Assembly (NCBI GenBank): GCA_964416635.1
Contig: CAYQEY010000002.1
Span: 1-54,116, forward strand
Source: an uncultured Lachnospiraceae bacterium
Lineage (GTDB): Bacteria; Bacillota; Clostridia; Oscillospirales; CAG-272
Reading direction: 5' to 3'
DNA length: 54,116 nucleotides
The notes beneath the pieces were generated by a model. The model was not told where the DNA came from and did no database searches. It worked only from the letters and a program-made list of their open reading frames with translations. Made by a program: the position numbers and the translations under genes. Shown piece after piece: positions 4,109 through 42,454 of this stretch. The first letter of the stretch is position 1. The number at the start of each line of letters is the position of its first letter.

Positions 4109-5656
4109 TTAACCCCAATATTTTTTATCGAGGCTTCTGTACTGTATAGCCTCGGCTATATGGTTTGCTTTTATAGTCTCGGACCTGTCCATATCCGCTA
4201 TTGTACGCGCCACTCTCATGATACGGTCATATCCGCGTGCCGACATTCCCATGCGCTCATACGCCGCCTTAAGTATCGCACTTGCGGCAGGCTCCATAAC
4301 ACAATATTTTCTTATCAACGCAGAGTCAAGCTGAGCATTGCACCAAACCTTACGCTCCCGCTCCTCATTCATCCGTTCAAGTGCAAATTTGCGTGCCGCA
4401 TTTACCCGTTCGCGTATCACCGCCGAGCTCTCGGCAGGTGCGCTTGACTGTGCAAGCTCGTCGTAAGAGAGCGACGGAAGCTCTATTTGTATGTCTATTC
4501 TGTCAAGCATCGGACCGCTTATCTTGGATATGTATCGCTTAACGTCGTTGGGATGGCAGGTGCAGGGCTTTGTCGGATGTCCGAAGTAACCGCATCTGCA
4601 GGGGTTCATGGCAGCCACAAGCATAAACGAGCAAGGATACGTGACTCTGCCGTTTGCGCGAGTTATTGTGACGCATCTGTCCTCAAGCGGCTGACGGAGC
4701 GCATCGGTCACATGCTTTGGGAACTCGGGAAGCTCATCCAAAAACAAAACTCCGTTATGCGCGAGCGACACCTCACCCGGAAGCGGATTTATTCCGCCTC
4801 CGACAAGACTTGCCGAACTCATCGTGTGGTGCGGAGATCGGAACGGTCTTTGTGAGATAAGCGAAACTCCGCTCTTGAGAACTCCCGCCACAGAATGTAT
4901 CTTTGTGCACTCTATAGCCTCTGCGAAATCAAGCGGCGGCATGATGGTCGGAATACGCTTGGCAAGCATCGACTTTCCGGTTCCCGGAGGACCTATGAGC
5001 AATATATTGTGACCTCCCGCAGCGGCTATCTCTATAGCTCTCTTTGCCATCGCCTGACCTTTGACGTCTGCAAAATCAAGAGCACTGTTTCGAACTGCCG
5101 CCTCAAATGCGTTCCTGTCACATTTGACGGGTTCAAGTGGCTTCTCACCATTGAGATGCATGACGAGATCCCTGACACACGCGACTGAATAAACCGTTAT
5201 ACCGTCGACTGCCGCCGCCTCGCCCGCATTCTCTGCAGGTGCGTAAAATTCTTTAAGACCTGCATCTCTCGCGGCAACACACATACAGAGTACTCCGCGC
5301 ACACCGCGAAGCTCTCCCGAGAGCGAGAGCTCGCCGACAAAGCATTTGTCTGAAAAATCGACCTCTTGACCGAGAATCCCTCCGCAACGCATAATACCCA
5401 TAAGTATTGCCGTATCAAACCCCGAGCCCTCTTTTTTGCGGTCAGCAGGGGCAAGGTTCAGCATAAGCTCCACGGACGGAAAATGAAATCCGCTGTTTTC
5501 ACACGCGGTACGAACTCTCTCTTTCGCCTCCTTTACGGCAAGGTCGGGCAGACCGACAAGCTGAAAATCGGGTATTCTTGAGCGCGCGTTACACTCGACC
5601 GTAACGATATAGCCGTCAATGCCGAAAAGTCCTGCGCTGTAAACGGTGGATAGCAT
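4109..5656 (-). CDS. comM: YifB/ComM family Mg-chelatase-like ATPase
   Basis: Lon-like N-terminal domain ([11 protein letters not shown]), Walker A GPPGTGKS, and the C-terminal ChlI/MCM-like region. The start is at M10 with a GGAGG SD. Confidence 0.9.
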
Positions 5657-14532: not shown

Positions 14533-14750
14533 GCCACACCTTCCTTTTTATGATTATATCATCCTTACCTCTTCCTGTCAATAAAAATAACAAATTTTTT
14601 TGCCCATTCTTATGCTGTGAGAAGCTAAAACCAAAATAATGCAAAATTTAAGATAAAGTTATGCTATTTACTATACAGTAAAAGAATTATATAATAGAGC
14701 TTGAAATGCATGATTGCATTTTTATCAAAAATGAAGGTAGGTAAAATTTT

Positions 14751-15812
14751 ATGAAAACCACTGTTATTGCAATAGTAGGTTGCGGAAGGATCGCCAACGG
14801 AGCACATCTTCCCGCTCTCGCAAAACTTGATAACGTAAGGATCAAATATGCGTGTGACCTGATTTTGGAAAAGGCTGAAAAGGCTAAGGCTGATTTTCCC
14901 AAGATCGAGCAGGTCATCACCGACTATAACGTAGCTCTCGCCGATCCCGAGGTCGAGGCTGTATTCGTTCTCACGCCCAACTATGCTCACTATACCGTAA
15001 CGATGGACGCGCTTCGCGCAGGCAAGCACGTTATGTGCGAAAAGCCCGTTACCGTAAACTATGCACTCTCCTGCGAGATGGCTGCAGAGGCGGACAAACA
15101 GGGTAAGATCCTCAATATCGGTGTTTGTAACCGTTACCACAAGTCTGTCGAGCTTCTCGAAGAACTTAACAGAAACGGTGAGTTCGGCAATATCTACCAC
15201 ATATATTGCTCCTTCCGCTCTTTCCGTTCGATCCCCGGGCTCGGCGGTCCGTTTACCGACAAATCTCAATCGGGCGGAGGCGTGCTTATCGACTGGGGTA
15301 TCCACTTCCTCGATCTTATCCTCTACATACTCGGCGATGCAAAGATCAAAAACGTTACCTGCGATGCCTACAGCGAGATGGCAAAGGATATGAAGTCCTA
15401 CAAAAGTAAGGGAATGTGGGCTGAAGATACGGCTGACATCGAGAACGGCGTAAACAACGTTGACGACTTTATCACAGGCTATATCCGCACCGATAAAGCA
15501 ACCATTTCCTTCAACGGAGCTTGGGCGCAGAATATAGACGAACACGAGATGTTTATAGACTTTTTGGGCGACAAGAAGGGCGCGAGACTCACGTACTGTG
15601 GTCAGTTCAAGGTTACCGACGGTCAGACGCTTGAGACTGTCGAGACACAGCACGATATTCCGAATATGTATCTGTGTGAGGACGAGGCATTTATCGAGTC
15701 CATAAACACCGGCGTCAAGAACAAGAACAATATCGACAATATCCTTGAGAGCATGAAACTTCTCGATTATCTCTACCGCTCGGCAGAGCTCGGCAAAGAG
15801 ATAGAGCTTTGA
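14751..15812 (+). CDS. Gfo/Idh/MocA family oxidoreductase
   Basis: MKTTVIAIVGCGRIANGAHLPAL, CEKPV, GGGVLIDWGIHFLDL. Confidence 0.85.
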   Translation: MKTTVIAIVGCGRIANGAHLPALAKLDNVRIKYACDLILEKAEKAKADFPKIEQVITDYNVALADPEVEAVFVLTPNYAHYTVTMDALRAGKHVMCEKPVTVNYALSCEMAAEADKQGKILNIGVCNRYHKSVELLEELNRNGEFGNIYHIYCSFRSFRSIPGLGGPFTDKSQSGGGVLIDWGIHFLDLILYILGDAKIKNVTCDAYSEMAKDMKSYKSKGMWAEDTADIENGVNNVDDFITGYIRTDKATISFNGAWAQNIDEHEMFIDFLGDKKGARLTYCGQFKVTDGQTLETVETQHDIPNMYLCEDEAFIESINTGVKNKNNIDNILESMKLLDYLYRSAELGKEIEL

Positions 15813-15828
15813 GTTCAAAAGTAAAACC

Positions 15829-16674
15829 ATGAAAAAAATAGGATTTGTTGATTTTTATATAAGCGAGTGGCACGCAAACAACTATCCTGCGTGGATAAAC
15901 GGTGTTTGCGAGGAACAAGGGCTTGACTATTCACTCGCCTACGTCTGGGCTGAGCAGGATGTCTCACCCGTAGACGGCAGAAGCACCGCAGAATGGTGCA
16001 AAGCCTTCGGTGCGGAAGAATGCGCGACGGTGCAGGAGCTTTGCGAGAGATCCGACGTTATCTTTATTCTCGCACCCACGAATCCCGAAAAGCACCTGCC
16101 ATATGCAAAAGCGGTACTTCCTTACCGAAAGCCGACCTACATAGATAAGACCTTCGCGCAAAATCTCAAGGAGGCAGAGGAGATATTCGGGCTTGCCGAA
16201 AAATACGGCACCCCGTTCTTCTCTTCCTCGGCTCTCCGCTACGAAGAGTCACTCAACGACGTTGAGGATTGCAGAAACATAACGGTATTCATTTCGGGAT
16301 CGTCGGTTGGGGAATACATCATCCACGACATCGAAATGGTGGCCAAGAAGCTCGGTATCGGTGCAAACAGAGTAATGTGCATCAAAAACGGCGGGCAGAT
16401 GTTCTTCCATCTCGGATATGAAGACGACCGCTCTGCGTGTCTGGTATATGCGAATTTCGGTCTGCCGGGTGCGAGCATAATGCAATCTGCCGACGGCAAG
16501 GGAAAAACCGCAAATTCAAGAAGCGATATCTTTAAGCTGCTCATAAAGGATATTCTGCGTTTCTTCGGCGACGGCAAGGTAAGCTTCGACACCGCACAGA
16601 CACTTGAAGCTATAAAGATACGCGACGCCGTACTCGCGTCGGAGAAAAAGTGCGGCGAATGGATAAATTTCTGA
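15829..16674 (+). CDS. Gfo/Idh/MocA-like protein with a degenerate dinucleotide-binding motif
   Basis: MKKIGFVDFYISEWHANNYP... replaces GxGxxG. The rest resembles the N-terminal oxidoreductase fold (ILAPTNPEKHL..., YIDKTFA). The SD is weak, but the gene is tightly packed in the operon. Confidence 0.55.
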   Translation: MKKIGFVDFYISEWHANNYPAWINGVCEEQGLDYSLAYVWAEQDVSPVDGRSTAEWCKAFGAEECATVQELCERSDVIFILAPTNPEKHLPYAKAVLPYRKPTYIDKTFAQNLKEAEEIFGLAEKYGTPFFSSSALRYEESLNDVEDCRNITVFISGSSVGEYIIHDIEMVAKKLGIGANRVMCIKNGGQMFFHLGYEDDRSACLVYANFGLPGASIMQSADGKGKTANSRSDIFKLLIKDILRFFGDGKVSFDTAQTLEAIKIRDAVLASEKKCGEWINF

Positions 16675-23953: not shown

Positions 23954-24055
23954 AAGACATTCTCCTTTTTATTCGGCTGTTTTTACATTTTGTGTCCTTG
24001 AGATCAATAACCACGCACTCCACATGGGTCAAGACGACAAAAGGTATATTTTTGA

Positions 24056-24336
24056 TTAAATAAACCCTTCTCCCCAATCATCCCAATTTGGATTTTTCGT
24101 TTCCACAAGCCAATTCTTTTTAGCACGTATCCAACGCTTTAACTGTTTTTCTCGTGCTATTGCATCGTTAATTTCGGAATATTCTTCAAAATAGACGAGC
24201 TTATGCACATGGTATTTTTTGTAAATCCTTCGATTTGCTCGTTTTTGTGCTCATATAAACGACGCCGCAAATCGTTGGTTACGCCAATATACATTACTGC
24301 ATTGCTTTGGTTCGTAAGTATGTAAATGTAATACAT
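24056..24336 (-). pseudogene. GIY-YIG (Uri-type) nuclease family gene disrupted by a 1-nt frameshift in a homopolymer
   Basis: Own translation: MYYIYILTNQSNAVMYIGVTNDLRRRLYEHKNEQIEGFTK, then a frame change at the A6 run (T-run 24215-24220 on the + strand), then YHVHKLVYFEEYSEINDAIAREKQLKRWIRAKKNWLVETKNPNWDDWGEGFI*. One extra A would restore one ORF of about 93 aa. A sequencing error cannot be excluded. Confidence 0.8.
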
Positions 24337-24381
24337 TCATTCTCCTGTTCGCCCGGGATCCCGCCTTCGCGTTGCTCGGCG

Positions 24382-24513
24382 CTTTTTCGTCTGTGTCATC
24401 CTGAGCGTAGTCGAAATCCGAGCGCAGTGAGGATCAAACGGTGCGTAGCATCGTTTGGGATCTCGGACGAAAAAGTTCGATTCCGCTTCGCTCCACTCAG
24501 GATGACACGGACG
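24382..24513. other. Long imperfect hairpin / structured element in the leader of the GIY-YIG gene
   Basis: CGTCTGTGTCATCCTGAG (24388-24405) pairs with CTCAGGATGACACGGACG (24496-24513). Inner pairs are CCGAG/CTCGG and CAAACG/CGTTTG. An alternative 10-bp pairing exists: CTTTTTCGTC (24382-24391) with GACGAAAAAG (24466-24475). Confidence 0.6.
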
Positions 24514-24621
24514 CAAAGCGTTTAAGGGCTTCCGACAATTTTTCGTAATATCTTAAATATGCGCCGATAGAAATTTTGGTTTGAAAGAGCAAAATTTTGA
24601 CTATTCTAAGCCGATTTTGAC

Positions 24622-30730: not shown

Positions 30731-30901
30731 TTTTTCCTCCTGATAAAAATGCAATATTGTATATTATATTATAAATCCAATTGTAAAGAAAGTCAATAAA
30801 AAACCTTTATTTTTTCTGTAAAGTATGTTATAATGTATATGGTTATGCAGTCGGTAAGGAAATTCCGCTTTTATTTGCAGAGAACCCTTAAGGAGAAACA
30901 A

Positions 30902-38007: not shown

Positions 38008-38616
38008 ATGTCAAAGCAAAAATGGAAGGGCGGCGCTCTTCTCGCTCCCGTTCCTCCTGCCATGATAAGCTGCGGAAACGAGAGAGACGGAAGCTCCAAT
38101 ATCATTACCGTTGCCTGGACGGGCATAATCAACACGGTACCGCCAAAGACCTATATCTCGGTGCGCCCCTCACGTCATTCATACAATCTCATAAAGGAGA
38201 ACAGGGAATTTGCGATAAATCTTACCACAGCAGCTCTGGTCAAGTCGGCTGATTACTGCGGAATATACACCGGAGCAAAGGTAAATAAATTTGAAAAATG
38301 CAATCTTCACGAGGAAGAAGCAAGTGAGATATCCTGTCCCCTTATTTCCGAAAGCCCGATATCACTTGAATGCAGGGTCACCGACGTCATCGAGCTCGGC
38401 TCTCACCATATGTTTCTTGCCGATATAGTTGCGGTAGATGTCGACGACTCCCTGTTGAATTCCGACGGCAAATTATGCCTTGAGAGAGCAAAGCTCGCGG
38501 CATTTTCTCACGGAGAATATTTTTCCCTCGGTGAAAAAATAGGTTACTTCGGATTCTCGGTAAAAAAGAAAAAGAAAAAGCACCTTGACCCCGAAACGCA
38601 AAAAACATCCAAATGA
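38008..38616 (+). CDS. Flavin reductase-like (FMN-binding split barrel) protein with a Lys-rich tail
   Basis: NIITVAWTGIINTVPPKTYISVRPSRHSYNLIKENREFAINL. The ATG directly abuts the tcdA stop. Confidence 0.7.
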   Translation: MSKQKWKGGALLAPVPPAMISCGNERDGSSNIITVAWTGIINTVPPKTYISVRPSRHSYNLIKENREFAINLTTAALVKSADYCGIYTGAKVNKFEKCNLHEEEASEISCPLISESPISLECRVTDVIELGSHHMFLADIVAVDVDDSLLNSDGKLCLERAKLAAFSHGEYFSLGEKIGYFGFSVKKKKKKHLDPETQKTSK

Positions 38617-38625
38617 CACTGGCGT

Positions 38626-38856
38626 TGTGTAAAACGACGAAAATGACCTGTTTTCAAAAAAGCTCTTGACAGATGTGCGAGAAAGTTTTCCACAGGTAAA
38701 ATTTAATTTACCCTCGAAAGCACCCTTGATTTTAAAGGTTTTCCACACTTTCCACAAAGTTTTCCACAGTTTTGGACTTTTCCACAACATGAAGATGTGT
38801 AAAACTTTATCAAAATAAAGTTCGTTAAAATACACAAATATCCATATTATTCCACA
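38626..38856. promoter_or_regulatory. Cluster of DnaA-box-like 9-mers
   Basis: TTTTCCACA at 38676, 38729, 38750 and 38768; CTTTCCACA at 38738; TATTCCACA at 38848; inverted TGTGTAAAA at 38626 and 38786. All lie in a non-coding gap and are followed by an AT-rich stretch. Confidence 0.6.
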
Positions 38857-38940
38857 AAAATTTGACTCATTTTAGGCACTTTTAGGGGAAATATAAAAAT
38901 CACAAGAAACGATAATTTGCAGTGTTTTGCAAAAATTGTG

Positions 38941-38969
38941 TTGTAATATTGCAAGTGAAGTGTTATAAT
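38941..38969 (+). promoter_or_regulatory. Sigma-A type promoter (TTGTAA-17-TGtTATAAT)
   Basis: TTGTAA at 38941-38946 and TATAAT at 38964-38969, about 30 nt before the GTG of the pseudouridine synthase gene. Confidence 0.5.
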
Positions 38970-38997
38970 TATACTAAACAGATATCCGGAGGCTTTT

Positions 38998-39936
38998 GTG
39001 AGATATACCGTATCGGAGCAAGAGAACGGAAAAACGGTAAAAGAGATATTGCTCGGCAGTATCGGCATATCGGTATCCTTTCTCAGACACTTGAAATTTA
39101 TTGAAAACGGAATAATGCTCAACGGAAGCAAGGTCACCGTTCGCAAGCAGGTGAAGCACGGCGACGTGCTTGAACTCGCAACCGAGAACGAGCGGCTCGG
39201 ATCGAGACTTACACCAAATGATATACCCATAGACATAATCTTTGAGGACAGCGAGCTGGTAGTCCCCTCAAAACCATCGGATATGCCGACGCATCCGTCG
39301 CACAATCACCACGGCGACACGCTTGCCGACGCGCTTGCATACCGCTACAGAAATGAAAACGAGCCCTTCGTCTTCCGCCCGATAAACCGCCTTGACCGAA
39401 ACACCAGCGGTCTTACGATAGTAGCAAGAAATCGAATAAGCGCGGCAAGGCTTTCAGAATCTATGCGAAGCGGGCTTATAAAAAAGCAGTATATCGCCAT
39501 TCTCGACGGCATTCCGCCTGCCGAGTGCGGAAGTATAGAGACGTATATGCGACGAACAGCCGAAAGCATAATCGTGCGCGAGGTCTGCGGTGCCGATCAG
39601 GGCGGCGACTACGCTCTGACGCACTACAGAACGATTGCCGATAACGGCCGTTTTTCTCTCGTCGCCGCAGCTCCCGAAACCGGAAGGACCCACCAACTCC
39701 GCGTGCATTTTGCCCATATAGGTTGCGCGATACTCGGGGACGACATATACGGAGAACGATCTCCGCTTATCGGAAGGCACGCGCTCCATGCCGCAGCCTT
39801 GGCTTTCCCTCACCCTGCGACAGATCTGCAAACAAAGCTTTTCGCGCCCTTGCCGGAGGATATGCAAGAACTCAGCCGCCGCTTGTTCGGGGCTGATATA
39901 TGTGAAAAACTTTATGAGCTTTGCGACCTACCATAA
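38998..39936 (+). CDS. RluA family pseudouridine synthase (RluD-like, with S4 domain)
   Basis: GTG start after GGAGG, S4-like N-terminus, catalytic RLDRNTSG, HQLRVH motif. Confidence 0.85.
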   Translation: MRYTVSEQENGKTVKEILLGSIGISVSFLRHLKFIENGIMLNGSKVTVRKQVKHGDVLELATENERLGSRLTPNDIPIDIIFEDSELVVPSKPSDMPTHPSHNHHGDTLADALAYRYRNENEPFVFRPINRLDRNTSGLTIVARNRISAARLSESMRSGLIKKQYIAILDGIPPAECGSIETYMRRTAESIIVREVCGADQGGDYALTHYRTIADNGRFSLVAAAPETGRTHQLRVHFAHIGCAILGDDIYGERSPLIGRHALHAAALAFPHPATDLQTKLFAPLPEDMQELSRRLFGADICEKLYELCDLP

Positions 39937-39956
39937 AAGCAAAAAAGGAATTGAAA

Positions 39957-41159
39957 ATGGATCTCAATAAGCAAAAACTTAACGAACAAAACGCACAGAA
40001 CCCATGCAATGATACCGACGCATCGCTTGAAGAGAATACGGCGGATGCTCTGACTGAGCCATCTCTGCCCGTCGAGAAGAAAAAGCTCCCGCTTTTTTGC
40101 AAAATAATGTACGGAGTAGCGGCGTTTTGCGCAGTACTCTATGTAATATTTCTCTTCTCACCCGACTTTGCCGATTTCTTCAACGAAAATATCTCACCCA
40201 TAATACGGATAACGCTCGCAAAGCTCACGGCTTGGATACCCTTCTCACTGACCGAGTTTATTATTCTTCTTTTGCCGATCATCATATATGTTATAGTCTA
40301 TATCGGCATTAAGCGATATTCCTCGTCATGGAGAAATATAGGAATCTTCTGCCTTACCGTGCTCTCTGTCGCCGCATATGTCTTTTCTGCCTTTACGCTT
40401 GCCTTCGTACCTGCTTACCGAGGCTCTACGCTTGACGTAAAGATGGGACTTGACAAACAGCCGGTCAGCGCAAATGAGCTGTATTATACCTCGCAGATAG
40501 TAGTCGATAAGCTCAACGAGCTTGAAGCAGATATAGACTTCAGAGAAGCCGACGATTTTTCGGTCATGCCATACGGATACTCCGAACTCAACGACAAATT
40601 GATTGAAGCCTTCGACGTTGCATGCGAGAAATACGATTTTCTGCAGTCGTTTGACAGCAATATCAAGCGTATCATGCTCAGCGAGCCTATGACCTACACG
40701 CATATAAGCGGCGTTTACACATTCTTTACGGGCGAAGCCAACATCAACACCAATTTTCCCGATTATACCATTCCCTTCACCGCCGCTCACGAACTGGCAC
40801 ATCAGAGGGGCATAGCGCGGGAGGATGAGGCAAATTTCGTAGCATTTATCGTATGCTCCGGGTCGTCGGACAAATATATACAGTATTCTGCTTATCTCAA
40901 TCTATATGAATATCTTGCCGGACCCTTGAGCCGGGCAAACTCGCAGTACTACGCTCTCGTGTACGGACAGCTGCCGGGCAACATAAGACTTGAGATGAAA
41001 GCGTATTCAAAATTTTTCGACAAATATCGCGAAAACATTGCCGAAAAAGTCTCTGAAAAAGTCAACAACACCTTTATTACCATAAACGGTGCCGAGGAAG
41101 GGACAAAGAGCTACGGTATGGTAGTGGATCTCGCCGTAGCCTACTACAAAGAAAAATGA
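39957..41159 (+). CDS. DUF3810 family membrane protein with a zincin-like HExxH
   Basis: N-terminal TM segments, then FTAAHELAHQRG (HExxH) plus EDEANF. The start is taken at M13. Confidence 0.65.
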   Translation: MDLNKQKLNEQNAQNPCNDTDASLEENTADALTEPSLPVEKKKLPLFCKIMYGVAAFCAVLYVIFLFSPDFADFFNENISPIIRITLAKLTAWIPFSLTEFIILLLPIIIYVIVYIGIKRYSSSWRNIGIFCLTVLSVAAYVFSAFTLAFVPAYRGSTLDVKMGLDKQPVSANELYYTSQIVVDKLNELEADIDFREADDFSVMPYGYSELNDKLIEAFDVACEKYDFLQSFDSNIKRIMLSEPMTYTHISGVYTFFTGEANINTNFPDYTIPFTAAHELAHQRGIAREDEANFVAFIVCSGSSDKYIQYSAYLNLYEYLAGPLSRANSQYYALVYGQLPGNIRLEMKAYSKFFDKYRENIAEKVSEKVNNTFITINGAEEGTKSYGMVVDLAVAYYKEK

Positions 41160-41197: not shown

Positions 41198-42454
41198 ATG
41201 GAAAAGCTTATCATACGCGGCAGAAATCCGCTTTACGGCGACGTAAAAATAAGCGGAATGAAAAATTCCGCCCTACCCGTAATTTTCGGAACGATAGCCG
41301 CAGACGACATTTGCACCATAAAAAATCTCCCCGACATCAGCGATATATCATTGGCACTTGAGACCCTGCAAATGATAGGCGCAGACGTGCGCTTCATCAA
41401 TACCTCCACGGTAATGATAGACACACGTGGGGTGCAGATGAAAAGCCCTCCGCTCGAACATGTCAGCAAGATGCGGGCATCTATATATCTTCTCGGAGCT
41501 ATGCTCGGACGCTTCGGCAGTGCCGAGGTCGGCTATCCGGGAGGCTGCGACTTCGGTCTGCGCCCGATAAATCTCCACATCAAAGGCTTTGAGGCGCTCG
41601 GTGCAAAGATAACATTTTCAACCAGTGCTATGATAAACGGCGAAGCTCCGAACGGACTTCACGGAAATCTCGTTTATTTCGATATAGCATCGGTCGGTGC
41701 TACGATAAACGTTATGCTTGCCGCCGTATTTGCAGAAGGCACAACAATTATTGAAAACGCCGCCCGCGAGCCTCATATAGTTGACATGGCGTGCTTTCTC
41801 AACGCATGCGGGGCTCATATTTCGGGAGCCGGAACGAGCATGATACGCATCAAGGGCGTCGAAAAGCTTCACGGTTGCACTTATGAGCTTGCGCCCGATA
41901 TGATCGAGGCAGGAACCTATATGGTTGCCGCCGCCGCTACAAGAGGACGGATCTGCGTGCAAAATATCGTTCCGAAGCATATGGAGTCGGTCAGCGCAAA
42001 GCTTCGGGAGATAGGGATACCGCTCGAAATATCCAACAATTCCATAACGGTCAGCGGTATAGAAGATTTTCGCGGAACCGAGATCAGAACCAACCCCTAT
42101 CCGGGATTTCCAACTGATATGCACCCCCAGTTCAGCGCTCTGCTATCCCTCTCGCGCGGTATCAGTACCGTCTCGGAAAGTATATACAGCGGAAGATTCA
42201 AGTACGTGCAGGAGCTTAATAAAATGGGCGCAAACATTGAAGTTATCGAAAATGCCGCTCTTATCAACGGCGTGCCCGCACTTCACGGAGCAGACGTCAA
42301 GGCTACCGACCTGCGTGCAGGCGCTTGCCTTGTTATAGCCGCTCTTGCCGCCGAGGGTATTTCCACGATATCCAATATAGAATACATAGACCGAGGATAT
42401 GAAAACCTCGTTGAAAAGCTCCGATTTCTCGGAGCTGACATACGACGCATGTAA
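41198..42454 (+). CDS. murA: UDP-N-acetylglucosamine 1-carboxyvinyltransferase
   Basis: ISGMKNSALP, the GGCDFGLRPINLH active-site loop with Cys, FPTDMHPQF; 418 aa. Confidence 0.9.
   Translation: MEKLIIRGRNPLYGDVKISGMKNSALPVIFGTIAADDICTIKNLPDISDISLALETLQMIGADVRFINTSTVMIDTRGVQMKSPPLEHVSKMRASIYLLGAMLGRFGSAEVGYPGGCDFGLRPINLHIKGFEALGAKITFSTSAMINGEAPNGLHGNLVYFDIASVGATINVMLAAVFAEGTTIIENAAREPHIVDMACFLNACGAHISGAGTSMIRIKGVEKLHGCTYELAPDMIEAGTYMVAAAATRGRICVQNIVPKHMESVSAKLREIGIPLEISNNSITVSGIEDFRGTEIRTNPYPGFPTDMHPQFSALLSLSRGISTVSESIYSGRFKYVQELNKMGANIEVIENAALINGVPALHGADVKATDLRAGACLVIAALAAEGISTISNIEYIDRGYENLVEKLRFLGADIRRM

Follow-up and report, generated by a model that had tools for sequence, protein, structure and literature searches.

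The 54,116-nucleotide stretch analysed here (assembly GCA_964416635.1, contig CAYQEY010000002.1, positions 1–54,116; hereafter the window), from an uncultured Lachnospiraceae bacterium, contains at positions 38626–38804 a predicted cluster of DnaA boxes (DBC) situated outside the chromosomal origin oriC, a reading to which a probability of about three in four is attached. The protein binding the array is predicted, with good confidence, to be DnaA. The cluster separates a flavin-reductase-like gene from an apparent operon encoding an RluA-family pseudouridine synthase, a DUF3810 membrane protein and MurA. Clusters of DnaA boxes outside the origin are established regulators of replication initiation and of neighbouring genes in Bacillus subtilis, Escherichia coli and Streptomyces.

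The host intergenic region, between the flavin-reductase-like and RluA-family genes, spans 381 bp (38617–38997), of which a 179-bp stretch holds five head-to-tail boxes flanked by two inverted ones. The direct boxes occupy positions 38686–38786 of the + strand, four of them reading TTTTCCACA and one CTTTCCACA: box 1 lies at 38686–38694, box 2 at 38739–38747, box 3 (CTTTCCACA) at 38748–38756, box 4 at 38760–38768 and box 5 at 38778–38786. Box 2 opens a three-box module in which box 3 abuts it with a 0-bp gap and box 4 follows 3 bp beyond box 3. Both inverted boxes read TTTTACACA on the − strand (TGTGTAAAA on the + strand) and lie at 38626–38634, 10 bp past the stop codon of the flavin-reductase gene, and at 38796–38804; from box 1 to the right inverted box the successive spacings are 53, 9, 12, 18 and 18 bp. 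An initial annotation of the window had recognized all of these elements and placed the left inverted copy correctly at 38626, but its five-box span (38676–38776) and its right inverted copy (38786, in fact 38796) were each set 10 bp too low. It had also listed TATTCCACA at 38848; this sixth direct box does exist at that position (38848–38856, + strand), but none of its nine alignment columns is invariant and no relative has a box there, and it is probably a lineage-specific, fortuitous match.

The published definition of a DBC asks for three or more boxes that match TTWTNCACA with at most one mismatch at a mean spacing below 100 bp (PMC7561715), and the array qualifies with seven boxes in 179 bp, six of which are exact matches while box 3 carries a single mismatch. 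Boxes 3 and 4 additionally form a pair of the E. coli double-DnaA-box type (same orientation, 2 or 3 bp apart), the gap of which is invariant in the six loci described below. The concentration of boxes is peculiar to this region: the window has eight TTCCACA heptamers, six of which fall within 38688–38856, and four of its 13 boxes with up to one mismatch from TTATCCACA are found in these 381 bp, where approximately 0.06 are expected (Poisson P = 6.6e-7). The comparison with other intergenic regions that had been proposed as a check yielded none of comparable density in the window, 13 of the 14 others of at least 100 bp being free of boxes and the remaining one containing a single box. A chance origin of the box density is excluded.

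Relatives of the locus were sought by scanning a genome collection with the pseudouridine synthase protein, which returned five informative loci from metagenome-assembled genomes (MAGs) of uncultured Clostridia/Eubacteriales; the window together with L002, L007, L003 and L004 constitutes the five closest loci, and these plus L006 the six loci. The five closest loci have a common gene order, in which U32 peptidase, uppP, DUF4093, tcdA-like and flavin reductase genes precede the intergenic region and the rluA-family, DUF3810 and murA genes follow it. In the four relatives of this group the RluA-family protein is 69–78% identical to that of the window and the syntenic proteins range from 63% to 92% identity, while flanking-protein identity over all box-bearing relatives is 57–92%. 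The initial annotation had asked whether relatives with the same flanking genes keep the boxes: all five direct and both inverted boxes are present in L002, L007, L003 and L004, at spacings identical to those in the window. In the alignment of the five closest loci, boxes 1–5 are invariant at 45 of 45 positions, whereas invariant columns make up 41% of the remainder of the cluster span and 21% of the adjoining AT-rich spacer. When L006 is included, boxes 1 and 4 remain invariant at all nine positions and box 2 at eight, whereas box 3 becomes CTATCCACA and box 5 is absent. Most of the variation in the inverted boxes falls on their fifth position, which corresponds to N in TTWTNCACA and is occupied by A, G or C, with one further substitution each in L003 and L007. 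The left copy is found in all six loci, that of L003 (TGTGCAAAG) matching at eight of nine positions; the right copy reads TTTTCCACA in L003 and L004, has a first-base substitution in L007 (CGTGTAAAA) and is lost in L006.

The most divergent box-bearing locus is informative about the association of the cluster with its neighbours. In L006 (57% identity) the upstream genes are eda-like and kdgK-like rather than flavin reductase, and yet boxes 1–4, a conserved TTGACA hexamer and the promoter of the downstream operon are all retained; the cluster thus stays with the downstream operon. The boxes were not found in relatives at 55% identity or less. In one of these (L008, positions 1–380, 55% identity), approximately 3.5 tandem copies of a repeat of about 110 bp replace the cluster upstream of a conserved rluA-family promoter, each copy containing TGTGAAAAG, the reverse complement of which, CTTTTCACA, differs from TTWTNCACA at one position. 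The TTGACA hexamer (38666–38671 in the window, + strand) is itself invariant, lies with a preceding A-tract 13–15 bp upstream of box 1 in the six loci and occurs twice in L006 (2392–2397 and 2591–2596); a scan for a sigma-70 promoter at the hexamer at 38666 was negative, a usable −10 element at 16–18 bp being absent. At the level of strains, assembled contigs from four metagenome runs revealed 21 variant sites in the intergenic region, none of which falls in the 63 bp of boxes (P = 0.02) or in the promoter hexamers. As judged from these alignments, the boxes are evidently held by purifying selection as 9-mers at fixed spacing.

The three-box module formed by boxes 2–4 is not confined to this locus. 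In pig-gut runs that contain the organism of the window, several other contigs match positions 38737–38772 only and have unrelated flanks (X8, X10), and the local word depth over these positions climbs to 29 in X8; since unrelated contigs match this segment alone, the module is multi-copy across the community or across genomes. A scan of metagenome contigs for three TTCCACA cores at 9-bp and 12-bp offsets, a single spacing, so that the result carries no information on a preference for the 0-bp and 3-bp gaps over others, returned at least 120 loci in at least 58 unrelated sequence families, with no orthologous locus among the 120 module matches listed. Positions left free in the scan still follow the DnaA 9-mer, with T at 93–94% before the third core, and the module consensus is G-TTTTCCACA-nTTTCCACA-GAG-TTTTCCACA-G.

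The module was found in several gene contexts. It lies directly upstream of mnmE/trmE, about 190–200 bp before the start, in four families (L197, L193, L133 and L145), between the 3′ end of tsaD (gcp) and rex in L141, after murC and upstream of a replication gene with a DnaB_2 domain (DnaD/DnaB-like) in L149, and between a gyrB-like gene and pnp in L097; it also precedes a MurJ/SpoVB-like flippase gene in L100 and pgi in L185, and rlmB-type methylase genes adjoin it in L186 and in the L154 family. The latter family accounts for 43 of the at least 120 loci, has an rlmB-type SpoU methylase neighbour and is the commonest human-gut module locus among the matches listed, probably representing one very abundant gut species; in the 120 bp upstream of its module (oriented 4230–4257) lie two further TTTTCCACA copies and one inverted TGTGGAGAA. 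In three unrelated lineages the module occupies mraZ–rsmH leaders (L181, oriented 2156–2183; L144, 2304–2331; L091, 2451–2478), where it sits, in either orientation, between MraZ-type GTGGT repeats with 10-bp spacing and the mraZ start. Such positions suggest a possible DnaA input into transcription of the dcw (division and cell-wall) cluster.

DnaA is the probable binder because the boxes fit TTWTNCACA, the DNA-contacting residues of the protein are conserved, boxes 3 and 4 are separated by 3 bp and the module occurs in fitting contexts. Indeed, the base-contacting residues of DnaA are reported to be conserved between Firmicutes and E. coli (PMC7561715), pairs of boxes 2–3 bp apart are needed at nearly all non-origin targets of E. 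coli DnaA (PMC11317965), and TTTTCCACA appears, in parts of the origin-prediction literature, as a cyanobacterial form of the DnaA box (PMC4674748). That the repeats instead bind another protein, such as a direct-repeat transcription factor, a MraZ-like regulator (their complement contains GTGGA) or the iteron initiator of a mobile element, is unlikely, although several features of the module would suit such a protein: its periodic unit measures 21 bp (9 + 12 bp), it is repeated in an iteron-like manner in L114 and L148, it adjoins MraZ-type GTGGT repeats in the three families with mraZ leaders, some of its carrier contigs look phage-like (L116, L184), and dnaA adjoins none of the module loci listed. 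Against this, every box position is conserved in a manner that fits TTWTNCACA, including the tolerated variation at N, and the mraZ loci have canonical GTGGT repeats of their own, from which the module differs in its 9/12-bp spacing and its occurrence in either orientation. Moreover, plasmid and phage iteron origins have Rep, initiator or mobile genes beside their repeats, whereas the window and its five relatives contain only housekeeping genes nearby, with no rep, integrase or transposase gene found. The mnmE, tsaD and dnaD-like contexts of the module agree with known DnaA targets and therefore favour DnaA as the binder. The DnaA signature motif was found neither in the 120 module loci listed nor in the orthologous loci; one match in L050, which is a distant Enterococcus locus, has no relation to the module and was set aside.

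To the right of the cluster lies an AT-rich spacer (38805–38940, approximately 74% AT, no strand assigned), the sequence and length of which vary among relatives, followed by the promoter of the operon (38941–38969, + strand). The AT-rich tract noted initially at about 38800–38990 is real, with an AT content of 74% over that interval, but neither unusual nor conserved: several other 150-bp windows reach 75–79% AT, and other promoter-bearing intergenic regions have about 69–72%. The tract is thus ordinary for this genome. The promoter that had been placed within it for the rluD-like gene was recovered by a consensus scan as TTGTAA-17-TATAAT with a TG extension (TGTTATAAT; 10 of 12 matches). It is of the sigma-70 type and lies 29 bp before the GTG start codon, and no other feature beyond the right end of the cluster is strongly conserved; in all six loci its −35 hexamer is invariant and its extended −10 element matches at 8–9 of nine positions. 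The genes that follow, all on the + strand, encode the RluA-family pseudouridine synthase (38998–39936; GTG start, GGAGG ribosome-binding site at 38988–38992, Pfam PF00849, NCBIfam TIGR00005 at 206.9 bits against a cut-off of 192.7), the DUF3810 membrane protein (39921–41159; Pfam PF12725, E = 3e-87, syntenic in relatives) and the UDP-N-acetylglucosamine 1-carboxyvinyltransferase MurA (41198–42454; NCBIfam TIGR01072 and NF009470, both above cut-off, syntenic). Upstream, the flavin-reductase-like gene (38008–38616, + strand; Pfam PF01613) is unlinked to the cluster in L006, and no terminator was found by scan after it.

A further reading, in which the repeats act as RNA or codon motifs within a structured or protein-sponge RNA or within the gene of a small peptide, is most improbable. 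A 50-codon open reading frame (ORF; 38666–38818, + strand) does traverse the boxes, box 5 could pair with the right inverted box to form a hairpin, and contigs of an RNA-labelled run cover the intergenic region. However, the Rfam scan of the whole window matched no family, neither a promoter driving the region nor a terminator was found by scan, and the even coverage of genes and spacers by the RNA-labelled run means that it may contain DNA. Likewise, the inverted copies preserve the box sequence and not complementarity to a partner, and indels between the boxes and elsewhere break the reading frame. The 50-codon ORF was accordingly rejected as a by-product of translating the boxes, its frame being disrupted by indels in relatives. 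ARAGORN found no tRNA in the window, and one metatranscriptome yielded a single read-sized contig, from 38964, which defines no transcription start.

The juxtaposition of densely packed, oriented DnaA boxes with a stretch of 74% AT also recalls a replication origin, and the cluster could be taken as the chromosomal origin, or as half of a bipartite one, with the AT-rich tract as its unwinding element, particularly as gene orientation diverges at about 30.8 kb. Such an arrangement is very unlikely. As had been noted initially, dnaA and dnaN are missing from the window: Pfam scans of all its large ORFs found neither the Bac_DnaA nor the DnaN domain, and the same large ORFs include none of the origin-neighbourhood genes rpmH, parB, gyrA/B and recF. 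Instead, the products encoded in the window include glycoside hydrolases, a peptide-chain release factor and enzymes of sugar metabolism and RNA modification, and uppP, murA and lepA are among its other genes. No DnaA-trio arrays were found beside the boxes in the window or its orthologues, nor tandem TAG or [TA]A[GA] arrays near the boxes in the six loci. Because it is neither conserved (21% invariant columns) nor more AT-rich than other intergenic regions, the tract provides no evidence for an unwinding element.

Strand composition points in the same direction. Raw GC skew is negative across the whole window, and, as skew follows gene strand here, it was compared per gene strand: + strand skew in the − strand genes is −0.112 to the left and −0.107 to the right of the cluster, that in the + strand genes is −0.008 and −0.050, and the strand-balanced values are −0.060 and −0.079, of the same sign on both sides. 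These figures use 14751–15812 (+ strand), a real gene by Pfam, in place of the opposite-strand reading 14664–15830, which was dropped. If these values are read literally, the whole window is replicated by forks moving in a single direction, from right to left. The switch in gene orientation, which the initial annotation had correctly placed at about 30.8 kb rather than at the cluster, corresponds to a divergent pair at 30754–30833, with an α-L-rhamnosidase gene on the − strand and a gene for a DUF2079 membrane protein on the + strand; it has no DnaA boxes, and the strand-corrected GC skew shows no replication switch there. As judged within the 54-kb window, the cluster lies outside oriC and is unlikely to be an origin. 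The original preference for a titrating or regulatory cluster over an origin is upheld by the conserved boxes, their unique density, the presence of the module at DBC-like loci and the lack of a sign change in skew. Firmicute origins of the bipartite dnaA–dnaN type likewise present DnaA-box arrays beside AT-rich DNA, but the locus differs from them in having no dnaA or dnaN, DnaA-trios, conserved unwinding element or skew switch.

The closest known counterparts of the cluster are the six DBCs of B. subtilis, which are bound by DnaA and include those at thdF(trmE)–jag and gcp–ydiF (PMC3245932; PMC4447404). The B. subtilis clusters and the one described here are alike in being intergenic multi-box clusters located outside oriC in a Firmicute and beside housekeeping operons, several of which include RNA-modification enzymes, and other Clostridia carry the module of the window where mnmE (thdF) and tsaD (gcp) lie. 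They differ in the adjacent operon, which in the window is rluA-family–DUF3810–murA, and in the use of the TTTTCCACA variant in a fixed triple with 0-bp and 3-bp gaps; furthermore, the B. subtilis clusters rest on DnaA binding, deletion and expression experiments, whereas the cluster described here is predicted from sequence. The double DnaA box of E. coli (Stringer, Fitzgerald and Wade 2024, PMC11317965) shares with it a same-orientation pair 2–3 bp apart, which in E. coli is the unit to which DnaA binds stably outside oriC, boxes 3 and 4 being separated by 3 bp, but the window has seven boxes, box 2 abuts box 3 and the promoter is not overlapped. E. coli datA, too, is a compact locus outside oriC, at which about five high-affinity boxes sequester or inactivate DnaA (PMC3245932). 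datA needs IHF and works through hydrolysis of DnaA-bound ATP. Firmicutes are not known to have a datA-type system of IHF and DnaA-ATP hydrolysis.

By analogy with the B. subtilis DBCs, the array would be expected to keep DnaA from oriC and also to modulate the adjacent operon. In the proposed mechanism, ATP-bound DnaA would bind cooperatively to the core formed by box 2, the abutting box 3, the 3-bp gap and box 4, and the oligomer would then extend to boxes 1 and 5 and to the inverted boxes. The DnaA retained in this manner would be withheld from oriC, providing a titration-type control of initiation as envisaged for the six B. subtilis clusters, whose combined deletion advances initiation (PMC3245932). 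Transcription of the operon, or read-through from the upstream operon, might in turn become sensitive to DnaA occupancy, most likely negatively; with no terminator separating the upstream operon from the cluster, the bound array could act as a roadblock to read-through. DnaA is able to act in either direction in B. subtilis, where it represses ywlC and yydA and activates sda (PMC3245932). Titration and operon regulation are compatible, not exclusive, roles. The prospects of a measurable titration effect are about even, whereas an effect on the adjacent operon, again proposed by analogy, is plausible but slightly more tentative. A regulatory link is favoured because a change of the upstream gene leaves cluster and promoter together and because other operons have the module in their promoters or leaders; conversely, the lack of promoter overlap, the unconserved spacer and the variable distance to the promoter favour a mainly titrating or architectural role.

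A number of observations weigh against the interpretation of the array as a DnaA-titrating or regulatory cluster. It ends 136 bp upstream of the −35 hexamer without overlapping the promoter, an arrangement that does not readily suggest repression of a simple operator type. Among relatives, the interval between box 5 and the promoter appears from the alignments to vary, from about 160 to 200 bp. The invariant TTGACA hexamer beside box 1 is left unexplained by the DnaA-box model. B. subtilis DBCs act best close to oriC (PMC3245932), and the distance to oriC extends beyond the reach of a 54-kb window. None of the 120 module loci listed has dnaA as a neighbour, and these loci therefore lend no support to a use of TTTTCCACA boxes by the clade's own oriC. 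Finally, the RNA data are uninformative, given that the evenly covering RNA-labelled contigs are possibly of DNA origin.

The recurrence of the module points to a wider, more speculative role: the box/box/3 bp/box unit, with its 21-bp phase, is tentatively, and with some doubt, proposed to be a portable high-affinity landing pad for DnaA. Such a pad may have been repeatedly placed before, or in the leaders of, operons for RNA modification (mnmE, tsaD, rluA-family, rlmB), envelope and division (murA, murJ-like, mraZ–dcw) and replication (dnaD-like, gyrB-like) in gut Clostridia and other bacteria. If this is true, the module would mark a conserved DnaA regulon, or a distributed titration network, coupling the status of the initiator to the growth machinery, of which the cluster in the window would be one node.

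Two other regions of the window attracted attention. A candidate second cluster at about 24.0–24.2 kb (TTTCCACA, TTATGCACA) was rejected, as its boxes are isolated and the stretch, on visual inspection, resembles a small gene of the GIY-YIG type on the − strand. This small ORF (24000–24340) is followed by an imperfect long inverted repeat at 24340–24520 (gtgtcatcctgagcg...cactcaggatgacac), possibly a repeat element. The interval 48000–51000 is a low-GC island (GC 0.34–0.36, compared with about 0.49 elsewhere) with a ricin-lectin/M10 peptidase gene (48736–49842) and an ORF without a Pfam match (49867–50898), and may have been horizontally acquired.

Non-oriC DnaA-box clusters have not previously been described for uncultured gut Clostridia, while the DBC concept itself is unchanged. 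The recurrent fixed-gap three-box unit, together with its association with RNA-modification, envelope/division and replication genes, may be new: in the open-access literature searched, where absence is no proof, box pairs are described for E. coli and clusters for Bacillus and Streptomyces, and no three-box unit was found. The locus provides a clean, phylogenetically footprinted example of a DBC in a clade that dominates animal guts, and the rule of three boxes with 0-bp and 3-bp gaps finds dozens more candidate DnaA targets, some of them at the positions of Bacillus clusters. If DnaA binding holds true, DnaA regulons and titration capacity would be readable directly from MAGs, and it could then be asked whether the control of replication is wired to rRNA and tRNA modification and to cell-wall synthesis.

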